Origin: Amoebophrya sp. A120
Taxonomy: Eukaryota; Protista; Dinoflagellata
Direction: 5' to 3'
Assembly (NCBI GenBank): GCA_905178155.1
Contig: CAJINV010000013.1
Location: 2,360,281 to 2,424,280 of the forward strand
DNA: 64,000 bases
The notes beneath the pieces are model-generated. The model was not told the origin of the DNA. It searched no databases and saw only the letters and a list, made by a program, of their open reading frames with translations. Both the position numbers and the translations under genes were made by a program. Shown here piece after piece: positions 610 to 57,800 of this stretch (positions are counted from its first letter, which is position 1; each line of letters starts with the position of its first letter).

Positions 610-614
610 GAGGG

Positions 615-3600
615 TGGACATGGTCCAGGAAGCGGTCCACGATCTGCTTTACACGCCCTACAGACAGTACGAAAACAATTTTGCGGGCGAGGCGATCATT
701 TTCAACGCGACCCTGCTCGCGGAAAACACGATGACCAAGGGCCAGTTTGACTACATCGGGTCCTACTCCTGCAACCGGATTTTGCCGATTGACCGGGAAG
801 TCGGGAAGTTCTACCAGGGGCTCACGCACAGCTTGCCGAGGCTGAAGTTACGGCCGTTTTCGATGGTGGGTGTGGTGAACTCAGTTGTTTCATCGGGGAT
901 GATGAACAAGGGAAAGTCTTCCTATGTCGAGGGAATTGTCGAGGAAAAAACGATCAACGTGACGCAAGTGTCGAAAAGGTTTTCCCTGTACGATCTCGGC
1001 TTTCATTTCTACTACAAGGGGGAGGAGTACGGCGACATCGCCCCCTTGCCGGAGTTAGAACTGATGTCTTATTTCGTGGCCGTGGAGCTCAAGGTCGACA
1101 TCGGGCGGTTGTTTTTGACCAACAAGTTGATCATCGGGGGCTTGAAGATCGTCACGCAGGACCCGCTCGGGAAGTCGTTGAAGGTGCTCATCCGACTGGA
1201 CAAAATCCCGGTGTTCGCTGATTTCATCGAGTACAGGGTCGACTCTTACGAAGTGATGAAGTCCACCTACAAGGACAGCTTCCGGCTCCGGGGCCGCTTC
1301 GCGAACCTGCAGGCGGAACCCGCCCGCGACAGTTTTGAATCGCTGGAGCTGCCGAAGTTTCAGTATCCAAGAAAAAAACGATGTTAGTGTAACTGTCTTT
1401 GGCTGACAGCATCACAAGTATGCTCTACATGACAGAGAAAACCTGTCATGCGTGGGTCGTAAGGGAAAACACACACGAAAAGAGGACTTCATGGTCGTCT
1501 GGCATGACAGGTGTAACTCTGTTGCATGTTCTGCATCACAGAGTTACACTTACACAGTTTTTTGCTTGCATATCCAGATCTCCGTGTTCATCAACACGGA
1601 CGCCGCCGAGGACGCGAACGTGCGACAGGTTATGGACAGCAACAATGGCGGGAGTTACGAGTCCTGGCGGCAACGGGACTTGAAGAAAACCACGGAAATT
1701 ATCCGCAAAGTCTACAACATCGACGTCTACCCGGACTTCACGCCGCCCGCGATCTTCTTCGAAAAACCGCTCTCCGCGGCGTTTGCGAGGAACGAGAATG
1801 ACGCGAGCTTCATCACGACGACGGCAAAGGATAAGCACACCATCGACGATTTCTACTTCCGGGTGGCGCAGAGGACGGACGTGGGGATGACAATCAAATT
1901 GAAATCCGAGGACGGGCAGGAGGACCGCGTGTACCGGGCGCGAGTCGGGGTGCCCTACGGCGGGAAACTGCGGTTTCCCAACGCGGACCAGGTTTTCAGG
2001 GACGGGGGGATTCAAGAAATGGCGCCGGGGACGAACGGATCGGTTTACGTGAACGGCACGTTGCAGGAACTTTCGAACTGCACCCGGCCCACGGAACTGG
2101 CGGCGGTGAGCAACAAGACCGCGATTCCGTACGTCTGCGGTGTGGGGGACGTGTACGCGGCCACGCAGGGACGGCGGGCGCGGAACCCGGTCACGGGGGA
2201 AGATTTGGGCTACAGCGAGTACAGCGCGCGGTTCATCCAGCAGGACCCCATGAACGGGAATTACTTCACGATCACCGCGGAGCTAGTGAAGGTGAAAGCA
2301 GTGCTGGAGAGGGTCGTTTTCACCCCGGACCCGGATTTCGTCGGTATCGGCTACTTCGACGTGCAGGCGCAGGTGTTCGACAACCACTTGTCCCTGAACG
2401 GCCGCGGCGGGCCGATGAACTACGGGAAGCAGGCTTTTGTAGTCGAGCGGGACGAGTATTTAGCGGACAAGTGTAAGGTGACCATCGACGAGATTTACAC
2501 GAAGACTTCCGGTGCGTCCAGTGAAATCGAGTGGGACTTCGGCGGGGAGTCGCCGAAGCAGCGCTCGACGTTCCACGCCACCGTGTGGGGGAAGTGGAAA
2601 ATGAAAAACCCGAAAATCCAGGTCTTCACGCCCAGCCAAAGGCCGTCAAACGTGAAGTACAACGTGTCGGACTTGAACTACGCGGAGACGGACGATTCTT
2701 TCCTGGACATCCCAACCCCCTCGGTCGAGACGAACCCGCCGCACCACTTCCTGGATTTTTCCGAGTCCGGCGATCGGTTCTCCATCGACTGCGGGAAGAT
2801 CACCGTGGAAATCGCGTTGAATGGGAAGCTATGCATTGCAAATAGGTCTGGGTCTGGAACATTGGAACTTGTAATGCTGGTGCTACATTCCTGTAAAATC
2901 GGTATTGCATGACTAGCAAAAGAGGCCCTCTTTTGTCATACAAGACCGCAGTTTCTCATGTGGACTGCGCATGAGAAAGTGTTCGGAAAACTTCCCAATG
3001 CTTGGCTGCATTGGGAAGTCTTTCAGTCATTCACACTTCAGCATCACAACCTTTGAGACACAGACATATCTGCATTTGATAAAAGCCGATGAACATCAAG
3101 GAAGTGTCGATCGGCGGCGTGACGCACTACCGGGAGCGGATCGTGCCCGTGAACAAGACCGAGTACCCGCGGGACGACCTGATCGACTGGAAAACGTATG
3201 GATTGCAAAAATGTCTGGGTCTGGAAGAATGCAGGAGTTTGCCATGCAGATTTTGCATGACCCATGAGGTCTGTGATGCATGACATAGCATGACAGATTC
3301 TGCGGGACTTTTCTAATGCCTGTCCTGCATGAGAAATGCCCTCTCCGTCTCCGCGACGTAGCACAAATTACACCTCTTTTGCTGTTCGTGCAATACAGTT
3401 GTTATGTAGATTCCAAAAATAGCATCACAAGTTGTATCCTTCCAGACCCAGACATTTTTACATTTGATAAAACGGCCATCGACAAGGGGGACCAGGTGAA
3501 CGCGAAGTTTTCGCACACCACCATCGGCTACCCGCACTACGAGGCGACCCTGGGCGAGGTGAAGTACGGGGAGAAAAAGTACAAGGAGTACAGCGAGTCC

Positions 3601-6600
3601 GACAAGATTTTGAGCGTTCTCGGGAAGGGGCGACTTTTCTTCGACGCGGGGGAGTCGTACGAATCGGACGCGGACAAGGAAAACATGAATATCGCCAGAA
3701 AAAACTGCTTCACTGTAAATTTGTAATGCAGAAAATGTATTTCACTTTCACAAGTGTTTGTCTTGCTTCACATGCAAGACAGTGGATTTTTAGCTATGTT
3801 TTCCCTTAGGAACCTTGCATGGCAAATTTTCTCTATCATGTAGACCAAACTTGTGATGCAAAACCTGCAAAATCCTTACAGTGAAACACTCTTTTCGTAC
3901 GATAATGAATTGGGACGTGGTTCTGGACCAATCCTTTACCTCGGATGGTACGATGTTGCTGTTGCACGGCTTCCCGCACGAGGTCAACAAAGCCCTCTCC
4001 CACTTGTCGTACGCATACACGCCGACCGACCCAGAGATGATCGAGCGGGAGGACCATCCGATGTTCGAGCACGAGATGTGGGTGAACGTCTTCGGCCCGT
4101 ACGAGTCGTTTTCGAGCTTGAAAAAGACGATTCAAGTGCATCCAAGAATCAGTCCGAAAAAAACTCCGTTGGCAGACAAGTACTTCGAGGGCTACGCGGA
4201 AGTGGTGTCGGAACGGATTCAGGAGCAGGACAATCTGAGTTCGCCGTATGTGAAACTTCTGTGGAAAAGCCTGTTCGGCGCCGTCGAAGCGAAGGAGGAC
4301 ACAATGACGAAACTCCCGTGCATCGGGGTGAAATACCGGCTTCCCTACAAGAAGGAAGTCGGCCGGTACTTCACGGGGTTGACTGCGGATACGAGTAAGC
4401 ACGGCGACGAAACCACGGCGGTCCGGTACGACTTTGACGACGATATGGCGCACGACTACGACAACATCACCTTAACCGTGTCCGTTTCCGCGGGGAATCT
4501 CACTTTCTACGGGGACAGTATTGAGGAAACGTCCGCTCTGCTGAAGTTCTACCGGCAGAACGTAACCGACTACGCGCGACTGCAGGACTCCACTGCGCTG
4601 GAAATTGAAAGATTGAGAGATCTCCTGCGTCAGTTTCAAAAGCGCACCAGCTTCTTCCCCGCCGCAAAGCCCTTCAACTGCGATATCCTCACGGAGGACT
4701 GTCAGTCCTTCGATATCGTGATAAAACCCACCGCTTTCGATCCAGAATCGACGGGCATTTTCGACTTTTGCGGCCTCTACTACGTCCCGATCCCGGACCA
4801 AAATGTTTTCTTAAACGACATTGTGATGCTGGACGTGTCCGCCCGGATGACGAACGGGACGCAGTTCTACGATCCAAAATCTGACCCGGAGCAGCGAATT
4901 ATTTACCGCGATCATTTAACCCCGGCGATCCCGATCTCGCTCTTGCCGGTCCCCGACCCGATCGATTTGCAGTTCAAAAAAGGCGCTTTCCCCGTGGTGT
5001 ACCAGGGGGAGGAATTTCCTCTCGCGGATTTGGTGAAAATCGTGGACAAGGACCGGAGTTACCTCTACCGCCAACCGGAGACTTTACACGCCCCAATCCC
5101 CTACATTTTCCGGTTGACGCTCGCGGGGGAAAGGTCCCGGTTTGTGCAGCCGTTACCGGGGGACTGCATCAGCAACCCGGACAACATCAAAAATCCGGAC
5201 ATGGACGCGCACAACCCGAAGATCCCGCAGCCGAGCTTCTCCGAGGCGCTGGAAATGTACGGGTTGCAGAGTTTGAACCTAACTTTACCAATAGAAGACG
5301 CGATCCGATGCTTCGACCAGTTGCGAATCAAAATTCCGGACGACGCGGCGAGTTCGCTGCTCCCTGTGATCGACGCGGCGGACGAGCTGGCTTTGGAGAA
5401 TCCGCCCGTGGTGCTGCATTCCATCCCGGTAAACTTGACGGAGCAAATCGGGATCTTCAACCTAGTCGTCGACATCCACTTCGACAAGGAGATTTTCTAC
5501 GACGACAAAGCGAGCAAGGCCGAGGGCGAGAACTGGATCCGGGATGGGAACATCATCGAAACGGAATTAGCGAAGGAGTTTCAAACGCCCTACGTGATCT
5601 TCATCGACTGCGGGCCGGATGGAACTTGTGAAAGGGACGGGGGGTACGGCGACAATGTCGAGTACTTCATTTACCTGGATGACAACCTCCAGGTGCAGTT
5701 TTTGTCCAATGTGCTCAGGATCAAACCGGGCTCCGGGTCCGGCGCGGCCTCTTCCTACACGGGGAATGGGATCAAGCTGGAGGGCAACCGGCAGTACGCG
5801 GTGCACGTGATGGAGGGGATTCGGGACGCGTACTTCAACAAGTACAATTCTCTCTACATCGTCACCTTCAAGACCGGCCCGGAACCGGTTTTACCGACAG
5901 CTTGGCGGGTTTCCGGGTTGACCGAGGGCCGGTGGAACACGAACCCGTTCTGGATGCCGCAAGAGATCAACCTGACCAATTCTTCCTTCACGAAATCGGC
6001 CGAGGGCTGGCGCGTCGCCGAGCTGAAGATGTACACGGAGCCGGGGTGCCAGGCGGTGAACTTGATCACCGGTACGCCCATCGGCTCCGGCGCGGAGGAC
6101 ATGATCAGCAATGCGTACTTTGCGTTCGATAACGACGTGAACACGTACTGGACCTACAACCCGAATTTGACGCGGACGGACTTGGATCTGTTAGAGGATT
6201 ACTACCAGAACATCAGCTACAGTGGCATCACGGAGGTGGAGCGCATGCTCACCTGTACGAACCGCTACAACGGGGAGATCGCCTGCGACCGCCCGGCGCA
6301 GTACTTTGTCGGGTTGTTTCTCGGGGAGAACCGCGGGGAGAACGTGCTGTCCTTCCAAGTGATCCCGAGCTCTGCCAACCACACGCCGCAAAACGTGTCT
6401 CTCGAGTTCTACTACGAGCAGTCATGGCACCGGTTGCGGATAATCAACGTGAACCTGACCCACACCGATGATTGCTACGATGTCCCGCTAAACTACTCCA
6501 CGTCCGACCTGTTCGCAACCCCGGCGTTTTACGACGCATCCGCGCCGATTGTCGTGAAAACGCACCCGCCCGTGAACAAGTTTCCGGACCCCGCGCCGGA

Positions 6601-9600
6601 CGAGGCGGTCAACAGCATTCCGCCGAAAGGGTCGGTTTTGCTCGAGTTTGACGAGGATATTTTCTACAACACAAACACCACCTTTATGGAATCCGCCCTG
6701 GGTCGCGCCGCGCCCGAGCGGGGACTGCAGGCCGTGTACGGCATTGCGGACAAGCGGGGGCAGATCGCCGGGACGGGCGGCTACTTAGCACGCCCGATCG
6801 CCGTCTACTACCGGTCCGGGCAGGTGCCGTGCTTTTCCCCGGATGATTTCGTGTTCATCATCGACCCAAAGTACTACCCCGGAATTAAAATTCTCGGCAA
6901 CAAACTCATCTTCCACGCGGTCGACGGCGTTTTCGACTGGCCTTTGGGATTCCGCATGTGCCTGCACTTCCCCTACGGGGTCTTGCGTGACGCGGCCGGG
7001 AATTACTTCCCCGATGACCCGGAGGGGTACACGATGGTGTTCCACTCGATTCCGACCAACACGAGGCCTTTTGGAGATCAAATCGAGCCGGTTGTGTTAG
7101 CCACGTCCTTCCCGATTGGCGGGGTGATCCAGGACCAGCCGTTGAACCCGCACCTGCAATTCTGGTGGTCGGAACCCTTGTATGACAGTGCACAGCTCTC
7201 CCTCATCGGTGTTTGTATTGCATGAAGAGCAATACAAACACCAGCACACGTGGAGCCTGTGCATGGCAAAGTCACGCGCTTAGAGTAAGTAGTACCATTT
7301 GGGTTTCCGGAACCTGTCATGCAAACAGTGGCGCAGGACAGCACTTGGGTTTCGCCTTTTGCATGGCAAATGAGGGGGAGTCGTGCACGCTCATACCTTG
7401 CGGGTTTTGATGACGGCGGAAAACATCACGATCATCGGAACTGACGGACACTACGCGGGGGTGCCCATTCTGGACACGAACCAGGTCACGATCACCGACT
7501 ACGGGCTGATTTCCATTGACTTCAAGTATTTCATGCTCAACCCGGGCGTGCAGTACAACATTTCCTTTCCCGCGGGCATGTTCGAGGACACCTGGCACCA
7601 GGACACGCGGAAGAAAAACCCGGAGCAGCTCATCCAGGTCACCATGGGCATGGTGAACCCGATTGTGGGGGAGAGACGGGTGAACCGATTGGAGTCTCTG
7701 GAGAACTCCGAGGAGAGATTCGTGGAAAAATTTTTGCTCGCCCACGGCCCGGAGCAGAAGTTCCCGAGAATTGAGACGCTCAACCAGACATATTTACGGA
7801 CGTACTTGGAGAGTCTGTTCGGCGCGGACACGTTCAATTACAACAATTCGTACCTGTTCAACCAGTCGGAGGCAAACATGATTTTGGACAACGACCGGGT
7901 CCGGGAGGCGGAGGCGTTGACGAGTGAACTGTACAGCTTGAAGATCGGGGTGGAGTACACCGAAAACCCACGGCTGTTTTCCACAAAATACAGCGAAGAA
8001 ACCGGGAGGGAAGTTTCCCTAATCGAAAACACGCCCACACAGGAGGCGAAGTTCATCGTGAAGAAGTCCAACGCGCAGCCGGTGTTGCGCGTCGCGAACG
8101 AAACGTTGCGGTACGTGTTTGCGAACGAGTCCGTGATGGTTTCTGACGTGTATTTGGAGGACGATGATTTCACGGAACTCGAGTTGAACATCACGATTCG
8201 GGAGGGCACATTAGCAATCCTCCCCACCGCGTGGTACGAGTTTGGGCCGGTGTACCGCCGCAGGTTGAACCCGCGGAAGTTGCGGCGGAGCTCTGTGCTG
8301 GACCTGAGTTACTCGGCGGTGACGTACACGATCACCGGCAGCAGCGCGCAGCTGAACGCGGCACTTTCGAACATGACCTTTTTCATTGACCCAGATGACA
8401 ACGCGGATAGCTGGAACCGGAAGCCGATCCAGGACATTCCCATGCAATTTGTCTTGAAGGACGGGGACGACCACGTGGCGGAGACCACGATTCTGTACGT
8501 GGTGTCGGCCATCCAGGCGGGCAGGTTGAAACTCTCCGTCAACGGCATCTCCTCCGACATGCCGGCGGGCTCCGACTTGACGCAAACCCCGCAAATTGCG
8601 ACCGCGGCGGCGTTCCAGCAACTCGGCCCGATTTGCAACTTCAAGGCGGAGCGCGGGGGGGACACGTTTTATCGCGGGATCGAGTACACCGTGGAGTTGT
8701 CGTCGTCTGTCTGCACCGAATTCAAATTGCGCAACGCCGTGCAGACGCTGGAATCACTGTCCACGAGTCTGTCCTCCGTCCCGGTCGTGTTAGACGCGGA
8801 CTTCAACGCCTTGAACAAGGGGAATGTGGAGGCCGCGATGCGGTTAGTGGAGGAGTCGACCGCCTTGCCGAACCAGGAGAACCAGCCGCTGCCGGGTGGT
8901 GAAGTGTTCCGCATCAAAGTCCCGTCGATCGCGGCGCTGAACCGCGTTTTGCGGCAGGAAATCATGGTGAAGCCCTGTCGCTGCAACACCCGGTCGTGTC
9001 CGCAGAAAATTTTTTTGTCCGTGAAGAACGTGATCATCAGGAAGGGGAAGTCGCTCTTCGACCAGCTGAATTCAGTAGAAAAGGAATTCGAATCCGTCCA
9101 ACTGGAATGCGACTTCATCGCTCGGCTAGAGCCCACTCTCGCCGTCCGCACAAGCAAGATGCTGGCCATTGAGTCCGGACAGACGTTAGACATCAGCAAG
9201 TCCTTCGTCTTCGACGGCATCGCGACGGTTGAGACGGACGCGAAGGAATTGTCTCTGAATGTCACGTGCCACGAGGGAACTTTCCAGGGCCAGACGTACT
9301 ACACCGGATCCAGTATTGCGGATATTTTCGAGCAATTCTTTTCCGACGGAACCCTCTACGTCCCGCCGGCGAATTTGCAGACCCCGATGCTGGACAAACT
9401 GAATTTGACGTTCTACTCGCCCTTTTTCGGTCCGGATTTGGATTCCATGGTGCAGGAAAACCGCACCTACAACGCGTCCGACAGCTCGACGTCCAACCCG
9501 ATTCTGAAGCAGGACCCGAATTTGTTTATGAGAAGTTTCGTCTACGAGGTGGAGATTGACCCGATGACGGTGGTGGCGGGCGCGGTGCGGTCGAATTTGG

Positions 9601-12600
9601 TTGATGTCCGATTTAACCCGAGTTCGCTGGTGACAAGGGTCCGAGGCGACCAGACAAGCGGGAACAACGGGAATGGAGCATCAAGCAGCACCACGAGTTC
9701 GGCTTCGGGGCAGCAGACGTCCAGCACCCAGAAGGCGGGGTCGCTCGCGGCGTTTTCGATCTTACTGTACAACTTCGACGTCCCCGAGGCGGAAGTGGTG
9801 ATTTCCGCCGGGCCCCCCGGGACGAAGATTTATTTTCCGAACCTGTTTCACATGCGCGCGGACAACATCGTGGAAACCAACGAGACCGATACGGCGTACG
9901 ACAGCGCGGTGCAAATGTCGGAGTACGAGCGAACCACCTACGCCTCCGCGCACTGGCCGGCGGCTAAAGTGCGGCGGATTTCCGTTCCGGGGGTGGACGA
10001 CGACAACTTTTCCTCGAACAGCAAAGACGCGACGGTGTACGATGACCGAGTGGTGAACGACGAGACTCTCCACTCGTACCGCGAAGTCATTCTCCGCGGG
10101 CCGGTGTTGGAGTTGAAACGAGCACTGCATTACGTGCTGTTCGATCCGCCCACACATGTGAAGACGCAGCAGGAGATCGCGATCACGGTGGACATTTTTG
10201 AAATTGAAGAAAAACTCCCCTTCATCGCGGAACTGTACACGCAACGAGGCGGGGACAACTTCAAGATCGGCGCGGGCGTGTACCCCGTGACCGTCTTACC
10301 GGCCTCCGAGCCCCCCAAGCCGTGGTGCAGCATCGAGGGGCCGACGACGGTGTACCTGGCGGAGGATGATTTGGACGGGATGTTCGGCGCGACGCCGTTT
10401 TCCATGAACGGGTTGTACAAACCAATAGATATCGATTCTCTCACCCGGTCAGACAACGAGGTGCAGTACACGGCGGAACTGCTCGCGATGTTTTCGGAGC
10501 GAAACCGCCGGTTCCCGTCTGGGATTTTCAGCCTGGAGCGGCTGGACACGGTAGACGAGGTTTTTTACGACCAAATCCTGGACGCGAAAAAGATCAAGGC
10601 GTACGTGAAGGCGAAATTTGGCGTGCTGTACCCGGAATCCACGTCCCGGTCGTTTTTCGCGGGGAGAAATCTCAAAGCGTACTGCGAGCAGGCGTCGAAG
10701 ATGAACGGGGCGACCAACAACGGGAATGACTTGCGGCGGGGGAACGGGATCGCGAACACGCAGCTGACCGGCCTCGGGAGCACCCGGGTGAACCCGGAGG
10801 ACGTGTGTTTGGACAAAAATTTGCAACTTTCCGAAATGAACAGCGTTTGGGAGTTGTCCGGGACCCGGGAAGAAGTGTCCCACGCGCTGTCGAAACTGAC
10901 TTACGAGAATTACGCGAATTTGGAAAGAGGGGACTTCATCGAAATCCAGGCGGACTGTTTATACGCGAAACAGGTGGTCCATGTGGTGTTACGGTCCGGC
11001 CGCTCGCCGTACCGAGACGTGGAGCTGGATATGGAAGTGTCAGAATCAAAATTGACAAAATCAAAAATATTTGTGATGCACAAAATCGATGCCAGTTGGG
11101 GCCTCAGTTTCCAAGCGGCGCATGACAAGGTTCGGGAGCACCAGAATCCAGCCTTTTATGCTGGCTGGGCAAAGAAGACTGCTCCTGTCATGCTACTCTG
11201 GCAGCGCGTCTTCTGCCCCTGAAAAGGCTTGCAATCGGTCTCATTTGCCTGCTCCCCAACACAGGCCATACGCGCCCTACATTTTATGCATCACAAATGT
11301 TTCGACTTTGTCGATTTCGGTCCACCTGACACTCCCATACTGGAAGTCAGTAGGGACGCGGATGACGACAGCATCCGGGTGTCCAACGGTATGAGGGTGC
11401 ACAACTCCCCCTCCCTCTCATTTGTCATGCAAAACCCCAAATCCAAGTGCTTCCCTGTGGCACTGTTTGCATGACAGATTCGGGAAGCCCAAACAATACT
11501 ACACGAGACGCATGAATTTGTCATGCACAGGCTCCACGTGTGCTGGTGTCTGTATAGCTGTTCGTGCACTTCTACGAATGAGGGGGAGGGGGCGTTGTGC
11601 ACTCCCATAAACGGGGTTTACCAGGCATTACCCAGCATCGACGTGGTTCTGAGGAATCAACTGTACTCTGCGGAGATGGATGCCGCCGACGACACCTATA
11701 GCATCCCCCGGACGATTCCGATCATGGACCGGGAGCGGCCGCAGGCGTATTTTGAGGTGGAGTTGTCAGCAAGCTGCGGGTACGTCAGGTTAAACAGCAA
11801 CCGGATGCGGGGGATTTATTATCACGAGAATTCGCTCGAGTCAGGGTTAGGGATTCCGTTGAACGAGACAAGTTTGGTTAAGTTCACGGCACCTTTGGAA
11901 AAAGTCGTCCGCGCACTGAAGTACCAGCATTTGGAGTACACCTTGCCGTACAGATCGCGGTGCTTGCAGCAGAAGGTGCTTGCAACCTCCTCTGTGTTGT
12001 CCGATTTGAAAACGGCGGAGCAAAACCAGCAGGAGGTCGTGGAAAGAGAGCGGATCGCGAAGCAGCCGAGAGAGAAGATCCTCGGGGAGGAGACGCTGGG
12101 GAAGTTTATGCAACTGTCTTTGCGGATTCGGGACCTCCGGTATCAAGACGTGATTTTCTACGCGCCGGCGCTGAAAATCCCGATCCGGCGAAACACCGCG
12201 CCGAATTCCGCCGGGTTCTTCGGGTGCCACGCTTTCATCGACTCGTTGCTCTTTTACAAAAAGGTGCAGTACAAAGAACCCGTTTTGCTCTCCTCGCTGT
12301 TCTACGTTCTCGACGATAGTATTGCCTCCGACGCGAACCTGCAGTCCATGACGTTGGAACTGAGCACCACGTCTGGCGCGTTGTTCCGCTCCTTCGGCGC
12401 GTTGCCCGAGGACTTTGACTGGCGGGGGTTCGGGTTCGACGAAAATTTCTTCACGCAGAAGGCACAAATGAAGGAGAAGTATTCCGAGTACGGCGGGGAG
12501 AACGTGTTCGGGAATTACCAGCCGAAGTTAAATCCCTACGTGGACGACAGCCGGAACGGAAGAGACGAAATCCCCTACTACGAACTGTTCAAGGAGCTAC

Positions 12601-15600
12601 ACGAGGGGCAGATCGGCTTCCAAATCGACCCGCCGTCCGAGCCGTTTTACGAGAGGCAGATCCAGTTGAACGGGACTGTGGTGGAGATTAACAAGGCTTT
12701 GACTTTACGCATTGCAAAGGTATCGTATAATTTAGTGCAGATCGCATGACAAATTTTTACAGAAGGAAAAATAGAACTTGTCATGCTGGATCAGGTAAAG
12801 AAAACGGATCTGTCATGCCAGGCTGCAAACTCCCGTACGAGCACGATACTTTTGCACAGGATAATTTTACCTCCGTTGGCGGATCCCGAAGCGGGAGTTG
12901 AACACGAAGCAGTCGGTCGTCACCGCGCGCCTGAAGTGCAGACGCGGGGGGGAGATGAATGAGCAAGCCACAACAGCAGAGCAGAATGGCCAGCCGCGGC
13001 CGAGAAAGTCCGACTACAGGGTTGCGGACGTGCGAGAGGCGTTTATCTTCTTGACGGACAATGATTTTAAGACGGAGAAACCGATGCTGATCCGGTCGGA
13101 CACGGATGAACAGGTGGAGTATTCCGAGACGGACTACCCGAAATTCATCATCCACCCCGGCCGCGAGTTTTCGATTTACGACAAGACGAAGTGGCAGCTG
13201 CACTACCGAGAGACCGACGTGATGTTGTTCCTGGACCTCCGCTGCACCAGCTCCTGTCTGTTCACAAACCACGTGGTGGAGTGGAAGGATTCGCGGGTCC
13301 GCGTCGCGGGGACCGTTTCCGCCTTGAACGCATGGCTCAAATTCCTCCAAGTGAAGGTCATTGACCGGTCCGCGACGAAAAGAACCACGGTGGAAAATTT
13401 ACAGTTTTTGGAGATCCGCGTGTGGGACGCGTCGCTGACCGATGCGACGGATACGTACGAGAAAACGCCGGACTCGACGTCCCTCTACGTCGCTGCGAAG
13501 GTGGAGCTGAACTTGGTTCCCAGTCCGGAAGCGAAAGCGACCCCATTGCTATCCACCGCGTCCGCGGTGTTCGACGTTTTTCCATCCGACCACCCGAAAT
13601 TTCTACAAGGGTTCGTGAAGTCGGATACCGTCGTCCCCGGGGTTAATGGTCAAGTGAACGCGGCCACGCGGAAGGAGATGCAGAAGAAGAGAGCATATGT
13701 CGAGTTGGAAAACGCCTTTCGGTTAGTGTCCCGCGACGCGCAGAATTTGTTCAATTTTGCGGATAATTTGGACGACGTCGAAGAGCTGTTAACTTTGCAG
13801 GTTTTCACACGGAATCTCAACGCGGTTTTAGCCATGAACGGCACCGCGACCACGAACAAAGAGAATACGTTTCTCTACCCGACAAGAACCGATGACATCA
13901 ACGGTAGTACTCAGTTCTACTACGGGGATTCGATAAAACCCCCGGAGTTGGAGGAAAACGAAACTGCGTCCACCCTTCCCCCCGCGTTCGAAAACGTCAC
14001 CTACACGTACGGGTACGGGGCGGTGAGCGAGAAACCGAAAATGCAGCCGGTGTACTACGAGGGGCAGCGAATCGTCATCGCGAACCGAACCGCGAAGTTC
14101 CTGAATGCCGCTTTACTGACTCTCCGGTACTTCAAACCATTGCCGAATGAAGATTCGATGGGTAACAGTTTGGAAGACAGCAGCAAGGTGGATGATTCCA
14201 ACGAGGCACCTCCGGAAGACGATTTAGTGACGGTGCAAATCCTGAAGCAGACGCAGAACTTGAATTACCGGGCGCACGGCGGGAACGCGATCGTTTATGA
14301 AGAGGAGATCGTCCAGGAGGGTTCGGTGCCGATCTACTACATGGCCCCGGAAGCCAAGCCGGAGGTGTTCGTCGACAAATCCTTGTTTGATCCGTTGCTG
14401 AAGTACACCTTGTACGACGAGTCCGGAAACAACATCGGCATGCGCGGCACGGTATCTCCCGCAAGAGTTTCGTAGTTGCTACTTAGTTGCAGCTGGTGCC
14501 ATCATGCATGACCAAAAATGCGTTTCGCTATCTGAATCTGCATGAGAGATTTCATCTTCATGAGCGACAGCGATGCTTTTGCAATGCATACACGGAAGGA
14601 AAAGAGAAGAACGAGATTGATCCGAAACAGGCGACCTACGTTTTCTTCGCGGACCACACGCATAGATTAGTGGAGCTCGGCTCCGTTTTCAACTACAGAA
14701 AAATCGACTACGCCGGGTCGATTGTGGTTACGTGCGTGCGGTGTGACGGGTTTTTGATGCAGGACGTGTCGGAATTGCAGGAATCGCCCCGGAAGCCGTT
14801 AACGGTGACCTACCGGGACTACAGGCAATTGAAAGCCTTGACAAGCACTCTCCGATACGTCGCGAACGGGAATTTCACGGGTATCGACCGCGTGGAGTTC
14901 ACGATCTACGGGTTAAGAGCCCATCCCAGCTACACCAAAGTCCACCCTTTTACGGCTTTCGTCGGTGTTCACGTGACCAAATACGAACTGAAGCAGGCGC
15001 CTTTGATTCTAGCTGTCCGAGACTTCGAAACTGGGACTTTACACCCGGACGGGCTCACTGAAGATTTGGTTTTCAAAGAGGATTCGGTGGAAAAAATTGG
15101 GTTTGTGATCGAGCCCTTAGAAGTGGAACTGACTTCCGACGGAATCGCGTTGCAACCTCTGTTGAAGACCGCGAACGGGAAGCCGGGGTCGATCGAGTTC
15201 TCCAATAACGGCGTGAACAAGGGGGGCTGTTTCCGGGACCACTACGGCCCGGGGCGATTGTTGCAAATCACGGGGACCACGTCCCCCTGTGCGCTGTTCA
15301 CCGTGGTGACCGTTCTGGTGAATCAGACCAACGCGTTTGAGCTCTACCCCGCATATGACGTGGGCTCCAACGGCACCTCCGCTTTTCGGTTCCAGTCCAC
15401 CAGCTACCCGGACCAATGTTTAACTTACAACCCGGTTTTGGAGCAGTGGAATCTGTTCGCGTGTGGCTCCGCTTTCGTCGCCACGGGGTCTCCTCAGATA
15501 TTCTACTTGAGGACCGGGATGGTCGCCGACGATGGAGGCCCTAGTACTTCTGTCTCCCAAGAGCAAAAAACCTACTGCGCGGTAGTCGCAAATCCCCCGT

Positions 15601-44245: not shown

Positions 44246-46977
44246 ATGACGCACCAGGGTATGGAGTACTGCCCACTGAAGGGCTCGGTCCCCCCGATCC
44301 GTCCGGGCGCAAAACTGTTGGGCAACGATCCGTACTACCTGGTTAGCCCTACTTCGTTCGCCGTGGGCACCGTGAAGCAGGACGCGGTCAAGTGGCGCAA
44401 CGTCGCGTTTGACGGGGGCGAGCCGCCCGCGCGAGTGTCTTTTGTTCCGTTTCTCGTGCACATCGACAACCGGCCCTTCGTGTTCGTTTTCGGAGGGCAG
44501 CTGGTGGAGGAGGTGGTGCCGACCCTGAAAGACGACAACGACGGCGGCGAGTTTGGCGGCTTGCAGCGCGGAAAGAAGAAAAAGGAGGAGCCACCGAAGC
44601 TGCGGTTCACGCCCAGCACGAAAATGTACTGCTGTGACGTGGAACAGCGCGCGTGGAGGTCCGTGCGCATGAAGGACCCCACGCCCGCACCCAGGGCCTT
44701 CGCGACGGCCGCAGTCATGGAAAGGAGTAAGCAGTGTACGGGTTGTAGTTCAAAAGTTCTTTTCGATGTGGTTCTAGTTCATCTACATCGAATAAGTTTT
44801 TGATTGCTTGGTACTATCATAAACGTGTGAAGACGAGGGGAAGAAATAATCATCTCTCATCTTCTGCTTTATTGACACCCCAAGGGTTCTTCTGCTTTTC
44901 TGTTCCACAGGTCAGTGCGCCGTGATCGCGTTTGGGCAGGGGTTGCCGGAGAACCTGAAGCTGGCGGACAGCTGGGTGTTCGACTACTCGAAGGCTACCA
45001 TCTCCTTTCCAGACATCGAGAACTGCTTTTGGCGCAAGATCTACACCGAGCAGCACGCGTATGACGAGCCGCAGCCCGGGCCGCGGCTGCAGCCCGCGAG
45101 CATGTTTCTCCCCACGCCGAAGGGGGACGCCGAGGAGATGCTGATCTTCGGCGGGCAGGTGGGCGATGTCGGGGCGAACAGCGACGCCGTCTGCGACGAC
45201 ATGTGGAAACTTGATATCAAGCAGGAAAAGTGGGTACCGGTGAAATACGCCGGCTATTACCCGGGTGCGAGGAGGGACGCCTACTTTGTGCAGGCCAGCC
45301 CGACGGAGGTGCTTTTCGTCGGCGGTAGCGCGGAGTTGCTCGCGCCAAACGCCAGTTCCGACGTCGTGGGCAACATCAGCTCACCACCTCCGAGTCCAAA
45401 AAGCGGCACGGTTGCGGGGAACCAGGTTGGTCTTGTTTTCGGCTTTTCTTGGACAGCGTCGTGCAAAAGTTTTTTGTCCTTTTTACGGATGGAAACAAGA
45501 ATAAGTACCCATCGTTGTGCAAGTTTCACGTAAGGCGCAAAATAACAAGCGTATTCATCAATTTTTCATACCACAGTCGACCCAGTTTTCCAGCAATCTA
45601 GGGGCAGCAGTCGCGATAGACCAGTGTCTGGAGACGTTAGTGTTCGACACGGAGCTCGCAATTTTCACCCGGCCGGCCATCGGCTTCCTCCCGAAGAACG
45701 TGCCCGGGAAGGCTTTGTTTCTGGGTAACAAGCTGCCGTGTCTCTTTATGAGCAAGAAGACGAAACACGGGTACATCCAGTATCCCGCCCCGAAAAAACC
45801 GCCACCAAAACGGGAGGAGCCGACCGAGGAACTGACGCGCAACGACGCGGAGAGGATGCTTTTCAGAACGCGAAAGGAAATGGACGAATTAGAAAATGAG
45901 CTTCAGGTGGGTTACTTAAGTAGTACAGTTCCTTAGTATAATTTCCACGCGACGTCGCGTCCGTGTGAACAGCCAAGCGGGCCTTCTTGCTGCGGTTCCA
46001 ATTTGGTTTTTGATGTATGCGAAGAAGCAATCAGACTCTCGCTCGCTGCTGCGATAGCAAAACTATGCGTTTTTTGATTTCTTGATATGATCCCTATGGA
46101 TATCGATATATCAGGCCGTCTGCAAGGAGCGTCTGGACTTGCGGGCGCAGATTGAAGAGCTGCAGGCCGACGAGCAGCAGGAGGGAAAAATGGAGGCCAA
46201 CGATATGCATTGCAAACAGGTACCGCAGTCGTACAAGGTGCAGCTGTGGTGCATGACAGAAAGGCTTGTTAACCCAACTCAGGCTCAGCATCACGAAAGC
46301 AACGCTTTCTTCTGAAAAGATTTGTGATGCGATTTTACAACTGCGATACGATACCTTTTACGATTTGCATAACCGAGGCCTACAAGCAAATCGAGGAGTT
46401 GCGGCAAAAATTGCAGAAGGAGGAAGACCTGGAAACCGAGATCTTGCACTGGATCAAGGAGGAAACTACGTGGCGAAGGAATTTCAGCTACCTGAACCGG
46501 CAACTGAAAAACCTGATTGCCACTGCGGAAGCAAAGTACTTCAGCGAGCAACTGCTCGAAACCGCCGTGGAGAACGGTCTGGATTCCCTTCCCAGTCCGC
46601 AGGAGCCGCAAAGTAAGCTGGCCAAGAAAAAGTCCATGAGCGCGGAGCATTTGGCCGAAAACAAAATGAACGACTTCGAGAAGGACACGGAGGTCGCCTA
46701 CAAAACGCACGCGGAGCAGATACAAATGCTGCGGGAACTGCTGAAAACCTGTCCCGAGTACCGCGAACTGCTGCAGCTGTCGAAAATCCGGGCGCAGCAG
46801 AAAAAAACCCGAAAGTCGGTGATTGACAAGCAGATGCCGCCCGAGTTTCTGGCGCAGATCAGCGGCGCGGGCGGGGGCAACGCGAGCAGTGCCGCGAGTC
46901 GGAAGAACAGCAGCGCGAGCGGCGGAGGTGCGGGCAGCGTGTCGTCCAGGAAAAACTCGACCGGATCCGCGGGGTAA
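44246..46977 (+). CDS. Kelch-repeat (beta-propeller) protein with C-terminal coiled coil
   Basis: Exons 44246-44726, 44911-45425, 45577-45906, 46115-46203, 46377-46977; three GT-AG introns and one TIR intron. Kelch motifs PPARVS..FVFGG, PAPRAFATA, PGPR...LIFGG...DDMWKLD...W and PGARRD...LFVGG. Confidence 0.8.
46204..46371. mobile_element. TIR intron family B, 168 bp
   Basis: TATGCATTGCAAA...TTTGCATA; TSD AACGA/ACCGA; frame restored (ANEAYK). Confidence 0.85.
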
Positions 46978-50151: not shown

Positions 50152-53100
50152 ATGCGCAGTCCTCTAACGGTGCTCAATGCAAGAGCCACAACTACGTCGT
50201 CCTCGTCGTCTTTCAGTGGCTGTATAGCAGGGTGGTGTCGCGCAACTGGCCGCGGAGCATCATCAACTCCGTCGAGCTCGAGCAGCCGTCGTCTGTGCAC
50301 CGCGGCGCGAGAGCTCCTATCCGCGTCAGCTTCCTCCTCTTCAGGTGCGGGCAGGAGTAGACCTGATTCCGATTCAGCAGAGCAGCAAAAAGCGCAACTC
50401 CCACGGAATATCCTGCGCGCGGCGAGGCTGCAATTGGAACACAGTGGACGCTGTAGGTCGACGGGGTCGGCCGGCAAAGTGAATCAGGATTGGCAAGAGT
50501 TTGGGGATGCGCTATTGGATCTAGGAACGTCAGAGGCAGCTTCAAACGCGAACTCATCTTTCAATTCTCCCTTCAATTCGGCGTTCCTCACCACAAAGTC
50601 CGGCATCACGAACCTGCAGAAACTCTGCCGTCTCCTCGCCTTCGACGCCAATTTTCGGAGTTTCGCTTTTTGGCCCTTGTTCTCGGCCAGAATAGCGGGC
50701 ATCTACGATCCCGAGGACGAGGCGGCGCGGGAAACCGCGAGGGAAGCGGCTGGCGGTAGTAGTGGACCTCTCAGTGGGGAGGATCACCACGACACAGATC
50801 AAGCCAGGCGAAGCGCCGACAATGATTTCGACGAGAACTACGATGATGAAGATGATGACATTTATGGCGACGAAGGTGATGATATTGATGCCATCCAAGA
50901 GTCTTTCACGGGCCAAGCGTTGCCGCTGGAGGACGTGTTGATCATTTGTGAGTGCTATGCCCAAGTGAACCACCAGTGCAAGCACGCTTTCACGGCCTTG
51001 GTGAAACAGAGCTTGCGACGGCTCCGCGAGGATCTGCCGCTGACTTCGAGTCCGTATGATGATAGTACTAGTGCTGAAACTGAAACATCAGGACGACAAG
51101 AAGAAGTACCAGATCTTCACCCCACGACACGAAAAACGGTTCTCTCCGCCGAAGAAATTGCAAACTTACCGACGAGACTGCAGCGCCGGCAGGCGGAGCT
51201 CGAGAACAAGAGGATCCGGGAGGAGGAGGCGCGCCTGGAGAGGACGAAAGTGCTCTTCCACCGCGTGATGAAAGTGTTCGCGAAGGTATCAAATGTAAAA
51301 ATGTCTGGGTCTAGATCTAGAACAATTCATGTTTGTCATGCTTGTCTGGCATGACTCTGAAATCTGTCATGCAAGTTACCCAAGAGCTTCGTTTTTCTGT
51401 GATGCAGAAGCGCAGTTTGTCATGCAGAATAGGCAACACCTAGGAGCTCAGAAGCTTGTCATGCTGAGCCAGCATTTGTAGCCTCATCATGAGACGCCAC
51501 CCAGCATCACAAGTTTCCAGACCCAGACACTTTTGCATTTGATAGAAGGCGTCGATCCGCAACAACCGGCTGATGGAGGAAATTTCGCAGTTTCTGCTCA
51601 CCTGGCGCCAGCCGCGGCCGTTCGAAAACCGGGAGTTCGCGTTGCTCTTTCTGCATGTGATGAGCCAAACTGGGTATCGCAGCGATGTGCTGTTGCAGCA
51701 CTTCGGGAAGCGGTTCTGGAACACGAACGGGGCGGTTGATCAGTTTGGTGCTGGTGCAAGCGAAGTGAGGAGTAGAACGACTTCTTGCGCAGCTGCTCTC
51801 TTGGGGGACAGTGAGAGTAATGTCCCGAGTACACGTCTTCAAGAGGAAGAGCCCTCCGCCAGTAGTGGTCCTACAAATGAAGCAGAAGCAGGCCCAGATT
51901 TTAATTCTGTCGACTCTACTACGAAAAATTCCACCGCGTGGAAGCGGCAAGTCCTGTTTGCCGACTGTTTTTTGGCGTGCAAACAAATGAAAGATTACAA
52001 CAACACGCAGGAGCCACAGGCCGCCAACCCCTTTGTTGAAGAGCTTCACTACCGTTCCCAGTCTTGGAAAACCCTCCCCGGGAAAGAAATTGCTTCGGTG
52101 GTCGTAAAATCCCTGGGCAAGCTGCAGTACCGGCACGACTCGTTACTCAAGCTCGTGGTTTCCGACATCCTATTAGACGACGACCAGCGGGCGATAGCCC
52201 GGGCCATTGCAACGAAAGACGGCGATGTGGAGGATCGTCATGCAGGAGGAGGGAGCGATAACGACGGTCCGACAACTGCCGCTGCTCTTGTTGACGCTGG
52301 ACGAACTGCGGCGGGACAAGCTCAAGCATCGTCTTCGTCTACATCTTCAAGCGGATTGATTTGGCAAGACAAAGACCACCGCGGGCCGAGAGCAGCCACT
52401 AGAAATAAGAGCACCACTGCGATGAATGACAACAAAACCAAGTACGACGCGGCCGACGTCGCGAACGTGTGCGAAGCGATGCTGCTGACCAAGCGGGATA
52501 AGGGGAAAACGGACTGGTGGAACAGTCAGCAGCAGTTCCAGCAGTTGCTCCAGTCCCTGCAGGTGCGACTCGTGGACGAAATGTCTTGCCGTGACACGAT
52601 GAAGGCCAAAGATCTGGCCTGCAGTGCCTGGGTACTGGGGAAAGCGAAGGTGGACCGGGAGGATTTGTGCCTGCTTTTGTGGGAGGAGTTCGTGGAAAGG
52701 AGAATCTTGCGGCTGGGAGAGGACCTTCCGGAGATGTCGAGCCAGACACCTGGTCTGGCGCATGGGGACTGGGGCGATGTGGCGGATAGGGATGATACTA
52801 GCTTTGTTGAGGCGGGATCGGGAAAAATGGAAGCAGTTGAAGAATCATCGACCTCCGGCTGTAGTAGTTTGACAAGTGGCGGCGCATCTTTATCTGACGA
52901 AGAAGAAGAGGTCGACCTAAACGGGCTTTCCGAGATGAGAGGCGCCTCGTCTTCTTCGTCCAACGGAAAAATGGAGATATTATCGGCTGAGGACGAGGAA
53001 GTTGCTATATTCGGGAGTAAAAATAGCCGCGGGAAAAAAGAACCACACGACATTAGCGACGAAGGTCCTCTCGGTCTCGACGAAAAAGAAGATCCGGAGG

Positions 53101-53970
53101 AGCATGTTGACAGCCTCGAACTCTTCCCAGAAATCGATCCAGCTGCTGCGAATATAGAACTACAAAGAACCCGAGTAGGACAAATAAACGACGAAATAAC
53201 GTCGGTCGCCATCGCAGGAGCATCATTTCCCGCGGGCCAAGTCGATCAAACAAGCGCGTCATTGTGTGAAGGAACACCATTTATTTCACGACCCGCAGCA
53301 CAGCAATACAACAACTCTCGAGCTGCAGGCACTGTTCCACCTGAAGAGGATTTTTCGCCGGAGCTTTTGGTGCAGTTTCTCGAGGGGCTGGTTTACATGT
53401 GCCCAACTCACAAGCGAAAGCGAGCCCTGGTTCCCAAAATCGAGAAGCTCTCCCCCTGGATCTGCGCGAACGTGTGGCTGTTTGACTTGCACGAGCTAAT
53501 TCAGTATGAACTGCAAAAGTATCGCACCCGTATAAATGCGTTACAAATTTCCTCAGCATGAGAAATAAGATTTGTAATGCAGATTCGCCTTGGGAACAAG
53601 ATTTGTAATGCAAGACTTGCATTTATACAAGTGCGATACTTTTCCATTTGATATTCAGTGCAACCGGTACTTGGCGGACTTGGGGTACAGCGAGTTCGGG
53701 TACTACCAAGCCTTCGTGCCGTTCCTGAACCAAAGGACGAATTTGATGACGGCGACGGACGTGCAGAACGTGCAGGACACGTACAACAAACTGAAGTTCA
53801 CCGACGACGATTTTCTGACAGACAACATGATGATCGGCCGCCAATTTTTCTACCGGCTGGGGAAGCGGTGGCAGGTGCTCTACGCGAAACAGATGCGGGA
53901 GCGAACAAGCAAACGGAATAGCTTACTGGGAAAGACTGGTAGGGGGGAATTTTCGCAGCGGATTGGGTGA
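50152..53970 (+). CDS. Large alpha-helical repeat protein (FAST/HPR/OPR-like), possibly organelle-targeted
   Basis: Exons 50152-51286, 51550-53504, 53659-53970 joined across two TIR introns. Ser/Arg-rich N-terminus and degenerate repeats such as EIASVVVKSLGKLQYRHDSLL, DLACSAWVLGKAKV and ELIQCNRYLADLGY. Family assignment is tentative. Confidence 0.65.
51287..51544. mobile_element. TIR intron family A, 258 bp
   Basis: Perfect TSD GAAGG; can also be read as GT-AG 51286-51548; frame restored (FAKASIR). Confidence 0.92.
53505..53653. mobile_element. TIR intron family B, 149 bp
   Basis: TATGAACTGCAAAAGTATCGCAC / GTGCGATACTTTTCCATTTGATA; perfect TSD TTCAG; frame restored (LIQCNR). Confidence 0.92.
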
Positions 53971-54854: not shown

Positions 54855-57800
54855 ATGCAGGTCCAGCAAGGTGGGCAGACGACGCTGGCCGGCGGGCAAG
54901 CGAAGTACAGGGAGGATGACAAGCACGCAACAAATATAATGTACGACCGAAGGGTCGTGAGAGGTACAATTTTGCTGGGTTCTTTTTCGGGCTGCATACC
55001 ATCTTCACACTTGCGTACTTACCACGTTAACGTATTAACTCACATTCATCTCTTTTCACAACCGACAAAGCTGTCCAAATATGACCAACACAGGTAATAC
55101 CTACGCCGCATTAGTCGTGCCAGAAGATGATCCACAGCAGCTGGCGAGCCAAAGGGCAGCCCAGAGAAGAAAGCTTAAGGCCGCAAACCAACGATTTCAG
55201 AGGGTACATGAACGTTTTGGAAAGTTGGGATATCGTGCCTCGCTTTATTTGAAGATGTCGTGTCTCACGGCTTACCCTGCACATCGATCCACGAGCAATC
55301 TTTTGCTGCCTTCTAGGGTGCAGCTTCAGCATGGAAAACTTCTAAAAAAATCTTCTTTTCAGCCCGGCACGCCAGAAGCAGTTCCGGGTAGGCATCACAT
55401 GGACGTGCAGACAGACCCGTATCTGGAAGAGCTCACACAGCGCGCAACGGAATTTGAAGCGGAGACACAAACGGATTTCCTCCTAGACCGACCCGCAACA
55501 CCACTTTATATACCTGAGAAGGTACTACAAGTAGTTGTAGTACTCCAACTTTCACTTTCTTGGAATTTGAACATGTGTGGCGTCGAAGTAGGTACTTATC
55601 GAGCTCCTCGCCGCCTCTTGTTCGTGTTGATGATAAACTAATGTGCAAGGAAGTGAGCTCGCCCGTTGTTCAACATGTAAGGAGGTGGAAAAAGTAATGC
55701 ATTCTATGCCGAATCGAAAAATCCTGAACCTGATAATTCCCAACGCACACCTACAGAGCGGGCAAGACGCAGCAACGCAAATCGAGGACAATGATTTGTT
55801 TGACTTTGATCTGGAGGTCGAGCCATTGCTCGAGGTACTAGTGGGAAAGGCGCTGGAGAGGTCAATGATGGAAGTTTTGGAAGAGGAAGAGCTGAGCGCC
55901 ATGCGCCGGCACCAGGAGCACTTCCAGCAAATCCGGGAGCAGGAGCTGGTCGAGGTGCAGAGAATGGAGGTAAGTACTTACAACCTGGTTTATCTACAGT
56001 TTTGGCAGCACTTCTGTCATGCACAAAAGACAATCACGAGTGATAAAATATCACCGAACGCGAGGCGATAGCGATGCAAATGCAATGCGTGTTCTCGTGG
56101 TTGTGTGCCATGATTCATCACGCGCCTTCATCCGAAATTTTCTCTTTTAACAAAATTGTTTATAAATTTCACTGTAGAACAATCAAGCGTAAATAAAAAT
56201 AAACCCATCAGGCCGTCGAGAACCGAAGACAAGAAGAAATTTCCCGCAGAAAAGAGCAGTCCTCCGCAAGAAAACAATTCGACGAGGCTGTCATGCGAAA
56301 AGTATAATTGATTTTTTTCCCCATACTAGAAGTTAGGTTTTTTGTGATTTGTGTTTTTAGAAAAATTTCAGAGGAGGATATCAAATTCCGTGGGCCTAAT
56401 ACTGAGTCTGAGCCCCCCCCTCCATGATCCTCATCACATCCGTCTGAGATGAAAATTCCGACAACCCTCAGATCCTTTCCCGAAATGTGGCGCGAAGTTA
56501 CCTGTCCGGGCTGCAAAACCGGTGCTTCGACGAGCTTTTCGTGTCAAAAGGAAAAATCCCCCCTCCCCATATCGAAATGGAAATCTGTGATGCAGGATTT
56601 GGGTACACAAATCGGATCTGTCTTGCAGTAAGGCATCGCAGCCAGCTCCTCGGCCTAGGTAGGGGCGTATAGGTCTAGTTGCTTAGCATTGCAAACGGGT
56701 GCCCCCTAGGCGCAACAGCATGCCAAAGCGCTTCCATAATGGTGCGGAAGCCTCTGCGCCTGTCTTCTTGCAAGACAGACGTGATTTGTGACCTCAAATC
56801 AGCAACGCAAATTTTCGGAAACATACCTTTTCGATATGGGGAGGGGGGATTTTTCCTCTCAATATTTCGACGCGGGTGTTTTTCACGACAGCAATCTCAT
56901 CGCAGTGGAGGGAATGTTTCTGCCATGGCTTCTGGACTCCGTCAAGGACCGGGTCACCAAACTCGCAAGTCATCAGAAGGTAAGTCGAATCCGAAGTGGA
57001 GAAGTTCGTTGTGAAGAAGTTATTGTGCGTCTTCATGAATTTTAATTTTTTGCACGCGGGTCGTTCGTTTCGGATATGAATCTCATTGGTAGCAAGATGA
57101 GGTGATTTTTTGTTCTACTTTGTCGTGAAAATGAAACAGGCACTCGAGAGCGCGGTCGCGGACGTTGCCGAGGGCAAGACACTAGCACACGACCGGGTCT
57201 TGGCCGTCTACGAGGCGGAAAGGGACGAGTTGGAGGCAGCGGAGAGACGAATCCGAGCAGAAAGGGACGAGGAAAACAAGATCGCCGCAATGGAGGCTGT
57301 ATCAATTGCAAAAGTATCGCACTCGTATAAATGCATTACAAATTTCAATTTCCTCTGCGGGAAAAATAAAATTTGCATATGCAAGACTTGCACTTATACA
57401 ACGAGTGCGATACTTTTGCACTGGATAGGCTGCGCGAATCGCGGCGGAGGAGAAGCGAATCGCAGAAGCAGAGCCAGAGGATTGGGTCAAGGAGGTAAGT
57501 AATACTATCATATCCGATTGAATTTGATGAGAAAGACAACGAGGTTGATTGGTGCACGAGTATGAGCAAGACCCTTGACTAGGTTTGTTTTCCGCGACGC
57601 ATCATGATCGATACTATTGATAGGGTGAGGATGGAGGCCAAAAAACATTAAAACAGTTTACCTGCGTCGAGTACAATGAAGAGGAGAATTTAGTGACCCT
57701 CGACGACGAATCGAGTGACACCACCGTCCCAGAGGAGTTAGTGGAGGAGTTGAAAGCCCGCGTTGCCGCGGAAAGCGAAAAGGAGGAGAAGGTGCCGATC

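Follow-up and report, generated by a model that had tools for sequence, protein, structure and literature searches.

Introner elements and their host genes

We analyzed a 64,000-nt stretch of the Amoebophrya sp. A120 genome (contig CAJINV010000013.1, positions 2,360,281 to 2,424,280 of the forward strand; hereafter, the window, with positions counted from its first letter), in which genes are interrupted by short elements with inverted ends. Twenty-eight of these elements were identified by their inverted ends and adjoining direct repeats, and breaks in the reading frame revealed three more. The 31 elements (128 to 437 bp) are bounded by inverted repeats (TAT...ATA) and flanked by a 5-bp target duplication. 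The 5' end is TAT in 29 elements, TAC in one, and TGT in one, while the 3' ends are ATA; arm positions 11 to 13 are A in 26 to 28 of the 31 elements. The duplication is perfect in 22 elements and carries one mismatch in seven and three mismatches in two. According to an earlier note on this DNA, the same element works as an intron in either orientation. All of the coordinates in that note proved correct, and we add to them an inverted pair (1364 and 3690), a weakly forward family A copy (51287), and three further elements (12706, 19990, and 46204).

A giant host gene (611..42435, + strand) contains 26 of the elements and two canonical GT-AG introns (40984..41625 and 41843..41983, + strand). 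TAT...ATA elements account for all 26 introns in the first 40 kb of the gene, and GT-AG introns occupy just the last two places. When each element (length L) is removed together with one copy of the 5-bp repeat (i.e., L+5), the gene reads as a single + strand frame of 11,295 codons, and this frame is truncated by each of the 26 elements (611 to 40992) when that element alone is kept. Removal of L+2 or L+8 preserves the frame likewise. With the two GT-AG introns also removed, the frame comprises 11,514 codons from position 611 and stops at 42435; neither the 5' end nor a start codon of this gene was found. The encoded protein, which matches DUF4215 (cysteine-rich) repeats, Laminin_G_3, and Big_5, is likely a surface or secreted protein.

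The gene for radial spoke protein 3 (RSP3; 54855..57908, + strand) matches A120 protein P0001 and provides a comparison with relatives. One of its exons (70 amino acids) is 100% identical to the Amoebophrya sp. A120 protein, 87% identical to a second relative, and 81% identical to A25. Two elements interrupt the gene: a family D copy that starts with TGT (56542..56864, + orientation), within the conserved sequence RCFDELF|DAGVFHD, and a TAT...ATA element (57300..57427; repeat GGCTG). Their removal as L+5 yields ELFDAG and AMEAARI, which are the annotated A120 residues, with no indel against the two relatives, whereas L+2 removal would add one residue. The canonical GT-AG intron of this gene at 55971-56210 holds a TGTCATGC motif resembling those of the elements, and it may contain a decayed element within an older intron.

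The window elements are the introner elements already described from this strain (Farhat 2021, PMC7789003). In that description, the inverted repeat consists of TAT, seven looser bases, and AAA, with direct repeats of 3 to 5 nt (5 bp in the legend of Fig. S19); the elements have non-canonical ends, are about 240 nt long, and resemble miniature inverted-repeat transposable elements (MITEs), a hairpin is proposed to join the exons, and no U1 small nuclear RNA (snRNA) is reported. The inverted repeat of the TAT-N7-AAA type, the 5-bp repeat, the non-canonical ends, the loss from RNA, and the repeated families are all found here, and on these points we see no difference in kind. The elements also have the features of MITEs, or of non-autonomous DNA transposons with terminal inverted repeats (TIRs), being short and noncoding, with TIRs, a fixed 5-bp target site duplication (TSD), and a sense:antisense ratio of 23:24 (see below). 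How the more than 60% of Amoebophrya introns that lack GT-AG are removed is an open question in the same paper. Neither its text nor its supplementary text analyzes the orientation of the elements, and both leave open where the cut lies. In the present analysis, we count orientations, find that removal is exactly L+5, and narrow the cut.

Orientation of the element families

Since inverted ends match in both directions, orientation was scored on interiors only, using local alignments from which 45 nt was trimmed at each inverted end (maximum of the shuffled null, 32). Family A lies one way at 2830..3081 (repeat GAAGC/AAAGC), 28707..28969 (CGTTT), 30582..31018 (CGGAC), 33011..33272, and 35282..35542 and as the reverse complement at 3197..3469 (AAACG), 24193..24454 (CACCT), and 36375..36642, as the earlier note had it. 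For example, 24193 scores 29 forward and 216 reverse against 33011, and 33011 against 36375 scores 24 versus 186. The copy at 2830 is the most diverged member (scores of 57 to 82), and a diverged family A-like element at 51287..51544 is weakly forward. Family E forms the inverted pair 7181..7395 (forward; CCTTG) and 11390..11609 (reverse; AACGG; 20 forward versus 150 reverse). In family D, the reverse copy at 40228..40549 (ACAAC/GCAAC) is opposite to both 32335..32659 (52 versus 286) and 56542 (76 versus 332), and the latter two lie in the same direction (306 forward versus 73 reverse). Families A, D, and E thus lie both ways in + strand genes with the frame preserved, in the 11,295-codon frame and in RSP3. 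The added pair of a further family, at 1364..1572 (reverse; TTCAG/TCCAG) and 3690..3904 (forward; ATGAA), is likewise inverted (34 versus 90).

The other elements of the window comprise family B, which lies the same way at 27549..27847 (GGTGG/GATGG), 30243..30521 (GACTT), and 38276..38554 (TTGTT/CTGTT), and elements to which no direction was assigned. In the giant gene, the latter are located at 11030..11339 (CTGGA), 12706..12863 (TAC...ATA; a repeat with three mismatches, its removal being required for the frame), 14453..14590 (CACGG), 19990..20148 (GAAGC/GAATC), 24537..24761 (GCAGA), 28323..28497 (AGATG/AAGCG), 29555..29715 (TTCGG), 38608..38772 (AGATC), and 40620..40854 (GCGTT). A second gene carries 46204..46371 (AACGA/ACCGA), which is weakly opposite to 12706 (54 versus 20), and a third carries 53505..53653 (TTCAG). 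The family A copy at 30582-31018 owes its length of 437 bp to internal tandem copies of a GGCGGAGCTTGGAAAAACTGCATG-like unit (near 30776-30860) together with additional sequence, and its ends and duplication are still intact. At the window's edge, a reverse family A right end stops at 609; the sequence upstream of it is unrelated, with a TAC run and, near 384-449, a tandem duplication of 33 bp, and no matching left end or repeat was found within 1 to 609. This is possibly a nested insertion or an element reaching beyond the window.

For a wider sample, the family A end pattern was used to collect 142 loci from other contigs of a metagenome collection (18 of 64 parts scanned). These loci hold 241 distinct elements in 258 kb, of which 103 are family A copies with clear orientation, i.e., repeated members at unrelated sites. 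The loci are dense in elements of the A120 type, yet they have no long overlap with the window, and their copies are 78 to 94% alike. They may derive from the same strain as the window or from a related one, and a date for the element burst would follow from knowing which of the two (A120 itself or a sister strain) it is. Among locus elements with strong arms, a perfect 5-bp duplication is present in 158 of 192, while 6 bp was seen in none and 4 bp in one.

Gene strand was called from codon usage with a caller that is correct for 30 of the 31 window elements, the remaining one falling below its threshold. Of the 103 family A copies, 47 received a call (47 were uncalled, and nine had short flanks), and these comprise 23 sense and 24 antisense copies, in agreement with the roughly 50:50 ratio that the earlier note expected. 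The ratio is 18:21 and 14:16 at stricter cut-offs and 21:27 (55 uncalled) when strand is assigned by locus. Both orientations are also present in seven of the eight other clusters. Family A therefore uses both orientations about equally. Where frame could be called from both flanks in the loci, removal corresponds to L+2 modulo 3 in 16 of 17 cases (forward family A, 4 of 4; reverse family A, 4 of 5).

Introners that form introns both ways have been reported from Aureococcus anophagefferens (Huff et al. 2016, as reported in PMC10228655) and from element classes of Polarella glacialis (Roy et al., bioRxiv 10.1101/2020.10.14.339549). As in the window, these are introns derived from DNA transposons, with target duplications and both orientations. 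As described in those sources, however, their GT/GC/GA..AG sites come from the element or the duplication and their orientation is biased, whereas the A120 elements show no dinucleotide and, in this sample, no bias. Our literature search found no orientation count for A120 elements, although figures, data sets, Huff 2016, Henriet 2019, or the final version of Roy 2023 may hold one. The elements themselves and the creation of introns in either orientation are thus already in print, and the symmetry in A120, while unreported in the literature searched, is largely expected.

Removal from RNA and position of the cuts

Sequencing-run mapping covered positions 22500-42400 and four runs (X1, X5, X9, and X10); family E, the pairs 1364/3690 and 2830/3197, and the elements from 46204 to 57427 lie outside this range. 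None of the runs recorded as RNA was found to hold the stretch, and the raw RNA runs X9 and X10 gave three and zero reads, respectively. The informative sequence is record 4 of run X1, the kind of which is a guess. This 9,670-nt contig (depth, 30.3) matches the genome in five listed pieces without differing letters. It joins 35275 to 35542, omitting 266 nt (i.e., L+5 of the forward family A copy 35282), and 36368 to 36642, omitting 273 nt (i.e., L+5 of the reverse copy 36375). Two larger gaps of 597 and 454 nt equal the L+5 sums of 32335 plus 33011 and of 38276 plus 38608, respectively. The contig departs from the genome at 40223, just before the reverse family D copy 40228, with 1,819 nt remaining, and this copy was probably removed as well. 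In all, seven elements are missing from the contig, which crosses them unbroken. Removal of L+2 (N|TAT..ATA|N), which would leave an additional residue and produce ends of GT or AG, is compatible with the frame but is excluded by these lengths, for which it predicts 263, 270, 591, and 448 nt, as well as by the RSP3 relatives.

The depths of X1 at the two GT-AG introns served as a control. At 40984..41625, the bin depth is 6.12 (expected, 5.9 if the intron is removed and 30.3 if it is kept), and at 41843..41983 it is 23.7 (expected, 23.7 and 30.3, respectively). Because these depths show the loss of both GT-AG introns, record 4 represents spliced RNA. Across the gene, the depth of X1 is about 30 at the 3' end and drops to 1 to 5 upstream of 28500, as in 3'-biased capture of a very long transcript. 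In contrast, the DNA-like run X5 has a flat exon depth of about 24; its contigs enter the elements at the depth of their flanks (19 to 29), and one spans 28323 whole. On the basis of X5, which may be the source of the window itself, the elements are present in the DNA.

These data bear on two explanations that would place the loss of the elements outside RNA processing, and we give very little weight to either. Loss of an element together with exactly one duplication copy is what precise transposon excision produces, so the elements could be excised from DNA, as in the removal of internal eliminated sequences in ciliates, with the empty site restored before transcription. That the X5 contigs run into the elements argues against this (with the reservations that X5 is possibly the window's source and that contigs drop rare forms), as does the X1 contig, which lacks the GT-AG introns along with the elements; excision from DNA is disfavoured. 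The second is an artefact, in which the junctions would reflect reverse transcriptase switching templates over a hairpin between short direct repeats rather than a cellular event. A hairpin with a direct repeat of which one copy is lost is a known signature of such artefacts, and the elements show it. Nevertheless, each of the 26 elements breaks the 11,295-codon frame, the RSP3 relatives lack the inserts, one 9,670-nt contig runs unbroken over seven elements, and junctions arise at mismatched repeats, which makes this explanation very improbable too. Ribosome hopping between repeated codons was rejected by inspection, since the in-frame codon itself contains mismatches at 12706, 19990, 27549, 28323, and 38276 and the RNA lacks the elements.

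As perfect repeats hide the exact cut, mismatched repeats were used to read it. Three of these are informative: the matching stretches of X1 stop at 38271, 40223, and 28321 and carry the letters of the 5' copy. At 28323 (AGATG/AAGCG), record 3 of X1 follows the 5' copy through repeat position 4 (to 28321), which places the cut after position 4 or 5. We infer that the 5' cut lies 0 to 1 nt before TAT and the 3' cut 4 to 5 nt after ATA; the cut appears to follow the polarity of the transcript. The nine commonest non-canonical intron classes of A120 all start with N-T (Farhat Table S4, PMC7789003), with a register that is ambiguous there as well, and these starts fit the cut proposed here. Repeat mismatches also appeared to be graded by position (11, 8, 4, 4, and 1; positions 1 and 2 versus 4 and 5, P = 0.007, spotted post hoc), but this gradient flattened to 8, 6, 5, 4, and 4 in the loci once weaker strand calls were included and is not relied on.

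Removal signals and mechanism

No conventional splice signal was found in either orientation. GT/GC..AG ends occur in at most 5 of 141 elements at any cut register, and only 3 of the 31 window elements (51287 being one) have any such register. The composition of the flanking repeat follows no splice-site rule that we could see. The branch-point consensus is YTRAY; in the span from 10 to 70 nt from the 3' end, with the last 10 nt outside the scan, it is present in 0 of 29 forward and 0 of 27 reverse family A copies. In their ends and branch consensus, the elements therefore differ from conventional U2 introns. Neither orientation is depleted or carries splice sites or a branch point of its own, outcomes that would have contradicted the earlier note. 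That note ascribed the removal to symmetric signals, either a TIR stem that juxtaposes the ends in RNA or recognition on double-stranded DNA. The location of the signals in the symmetric ends is borne out by the 23:24 ratio, the removal of both orientations, and the absence of GT-AG and YTRAY; neither a stem nor recognition of double-stranded DNA is forced by these data. Since the ends are inverted repeats, the 5' text (UAU-N7-AAA) and the 3' text (UUU-N7-AUA) are the same both ways, and a directional reader of linear sequence would also be blind to orientation, as the introners of Polarella and Aureococcus exemplify.

In structure predictions, the two ends pair with one another in 136 of the 141 elements, with z scores of -7.7 for one forward copy and -5.7 for one reverse copy. 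An end-to-end stem in the RNA is likely. Folding energy shows no consistent difference between sense and antisense (21/29, 12/26, and 39/86). We favor, at somewhat better than even confidence, the reading that the elements are introners of the non-autonomous DNA transposon type that are cut from RNA in either orientation together with one duplication copy, with TAT-N7-AAA likely being recognized on the predicted end-to-end stem. In such a scheme, a transposase of the cut-and-paste type would make a 5-nt staggered cut and insert the element in random orientation. The ends, being inverted repeats, would pair in the pre-mRNA whichever way the element lies. A factor would then recognize the invariant UAU/AUA and AAA/UUU and set the cuts by distance (0 to 1 nt before UAU and 4 to 5 nt after AUA), so that polarity would come from the transcript rather than from the element. 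The joined exons would equal the empty site, and an insertion would thus cost no residue. The catalyst could be either a modified spliceosome that works without U1 or a distinct enzyme.

Several observations weigh against this proposal. The RNA evidence consists of one contig from one run of guessed kind, and contigs hide rare retained forms; assembled contigs give neither the RNA strand nor the splicing efficiency by orientation. The cut position was read from piece ends under a leftmost-joint convention, and only 28323 narrows it to positions 4 to 5. No strand call was obtained for 56 of the 103 family A copies. End-closing folds are expected by construction, since any inverted repeat folds. 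Among mismatched arm pairs in transcript orientation (first 12 positions; 143 elements, the copies of which are not independent), G-U pairs number 54 and A-C pairs 85; family A likewise has no G-U excess (13:16 and 13:16). This comparison gives no sign that pairing in the RNA is under selection. Finally, arm positions 4 to 7 are only 38 to 80% complementary.

The alternative with the strongest claim, although clearly the less probable one, is a relaxed U2-type spliceosome that reads linear end signals at fixed distances (UAU near the 5' cut; a U run plus AUA near the 3' cut) without any stem. Stem and linear models are inseparable by the orientation result, because inverted ends read alike either way. 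Arm positions 1 to 3 and 11 to 13 are near-invariant in the wider element set, and the conservation of these positions across families, the poor pairing of positions 4 to 7, and the lack of a G-U excess speak for linear reading. A120 is reported to retain U2, U4, U5, and U6 and 83 of 89 spliceosomal proteins, without U1 (PMC7789003), and the U2 spliceosome of Fritillaria handles transposon-derived non-canonical introns (review, PMC11282704). Against linear reading, no dinucleotide rule exists at any register, and the ends show no transcript-polar improvement: TATG follows the element, and the 3' arm is not enriched in the base corresponding to the -2 U of a hypothetical terminal branch site (73 versus 86 of 143). 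The window had suggested an adaptation of 5' ends toward GUAUG-like donors, but this idea was rejected, as TATG follows the element's own left end in the larger set. In forward copies, its G occurs at the transcript 5' arm in 6 of 23 cases and at the 3' arm in 2 of 23; in reverse copies, the corresponding counts are 1 of 24 and 12 of 24. A G before TAT occurs in 47 of the 141 elements, versus 33 with the mirrored C (P = 0.10).

It is improbable, though less so than excision from DNA, that removal from nascent RNA is directed by a protein (e.g., a domesticated transposase) that binds the inverted ends on double-stranded DNA and labels the element as it is transcribed. Symmetric conserved ends without a pairing bias on the RNA strand are the expected trace of binding at the DNA level, but transposition alone predicts the same conservation, no such protein has been identified, and the account of A120 by Farhat (PMC7789003) reports no transposase. 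In the interiors of most window elements, short motifs (GCATGACA / TGTCATGC, GCATCACA / TGTGATGC, and GCATTACA) recur in both directions across unrelated families, as noted by eye; they are possible subterminal binding sites of a mobilizing protein or part of the removal signal.

For the favored stem-based removal, the nonconventional introns of Euglena are, by analogy, the closest working model. Their splicing depends on a paired motif located at defined distances from the cut sites (PMC12501133, PMC11282704). According to the same sources, they lack GT-AG, have pairing inverted ends and fixed, unequal cut distances (3 nt and 5 to 6 nt), carry direct repeats that allow the junction to slide, and are proposed to be of MITE origin; the A120 elements share these features or, for the pairing and the cut distances, are predicted to share them. 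The lineages are unrelated, however, and Euglena introns combine the motif CDG..CHG with a purine as the first base of the following exon, whereas the A120 elements end in TAT..ATA next to an unconstrained flanking repeat and follow no apparent exon rule. For Euglena, genetic tests of the pairing and the observation of circles have been reported (PMC12501133, PMC11282704), while the A120 stems are predicted. The introns of Fritillaria borealis also derive from transposons with TIRs and TSDs and have non-GT-AG ends (PMC11282704; bioRxiv 10.1101/2025.08.15.670264); as described there, these are mainly AG-AC/AG-AT ends with a demonstrated U2 spliceosome route, whereas the A120 ends fall in a free 5-bp duplication.

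Three constraints narrow the removal mechanism in A120. The interior and its direction are irrelevant, the flanking sequence is irrelevant, and removal restores precisely the empty site, through cuts staggered around the predicted paired ends. All of the signal should therefore reside within about 13 to 30 terminal bases, so that a minimal reporter would be straightforward, as would a test of stem versus sequence. Introner surveys that demand same-orientation similarity (as in PMC12130899) would split or undercount such families. A bolder and, in our view, rather doubtful extension is that A120 possesses a second, non-spliceosomal system of RNA surgery, which recognizes the ends of its own transposon, applies a fixed stagger according to transcript direction, and restores the exact pre-insertion sequence. 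If true, this system would amount to an RNA-level undo of transposition, in which every copy would be silent regardless of its orientation and location, and it would explain the approximately 30,000 genic insertions.

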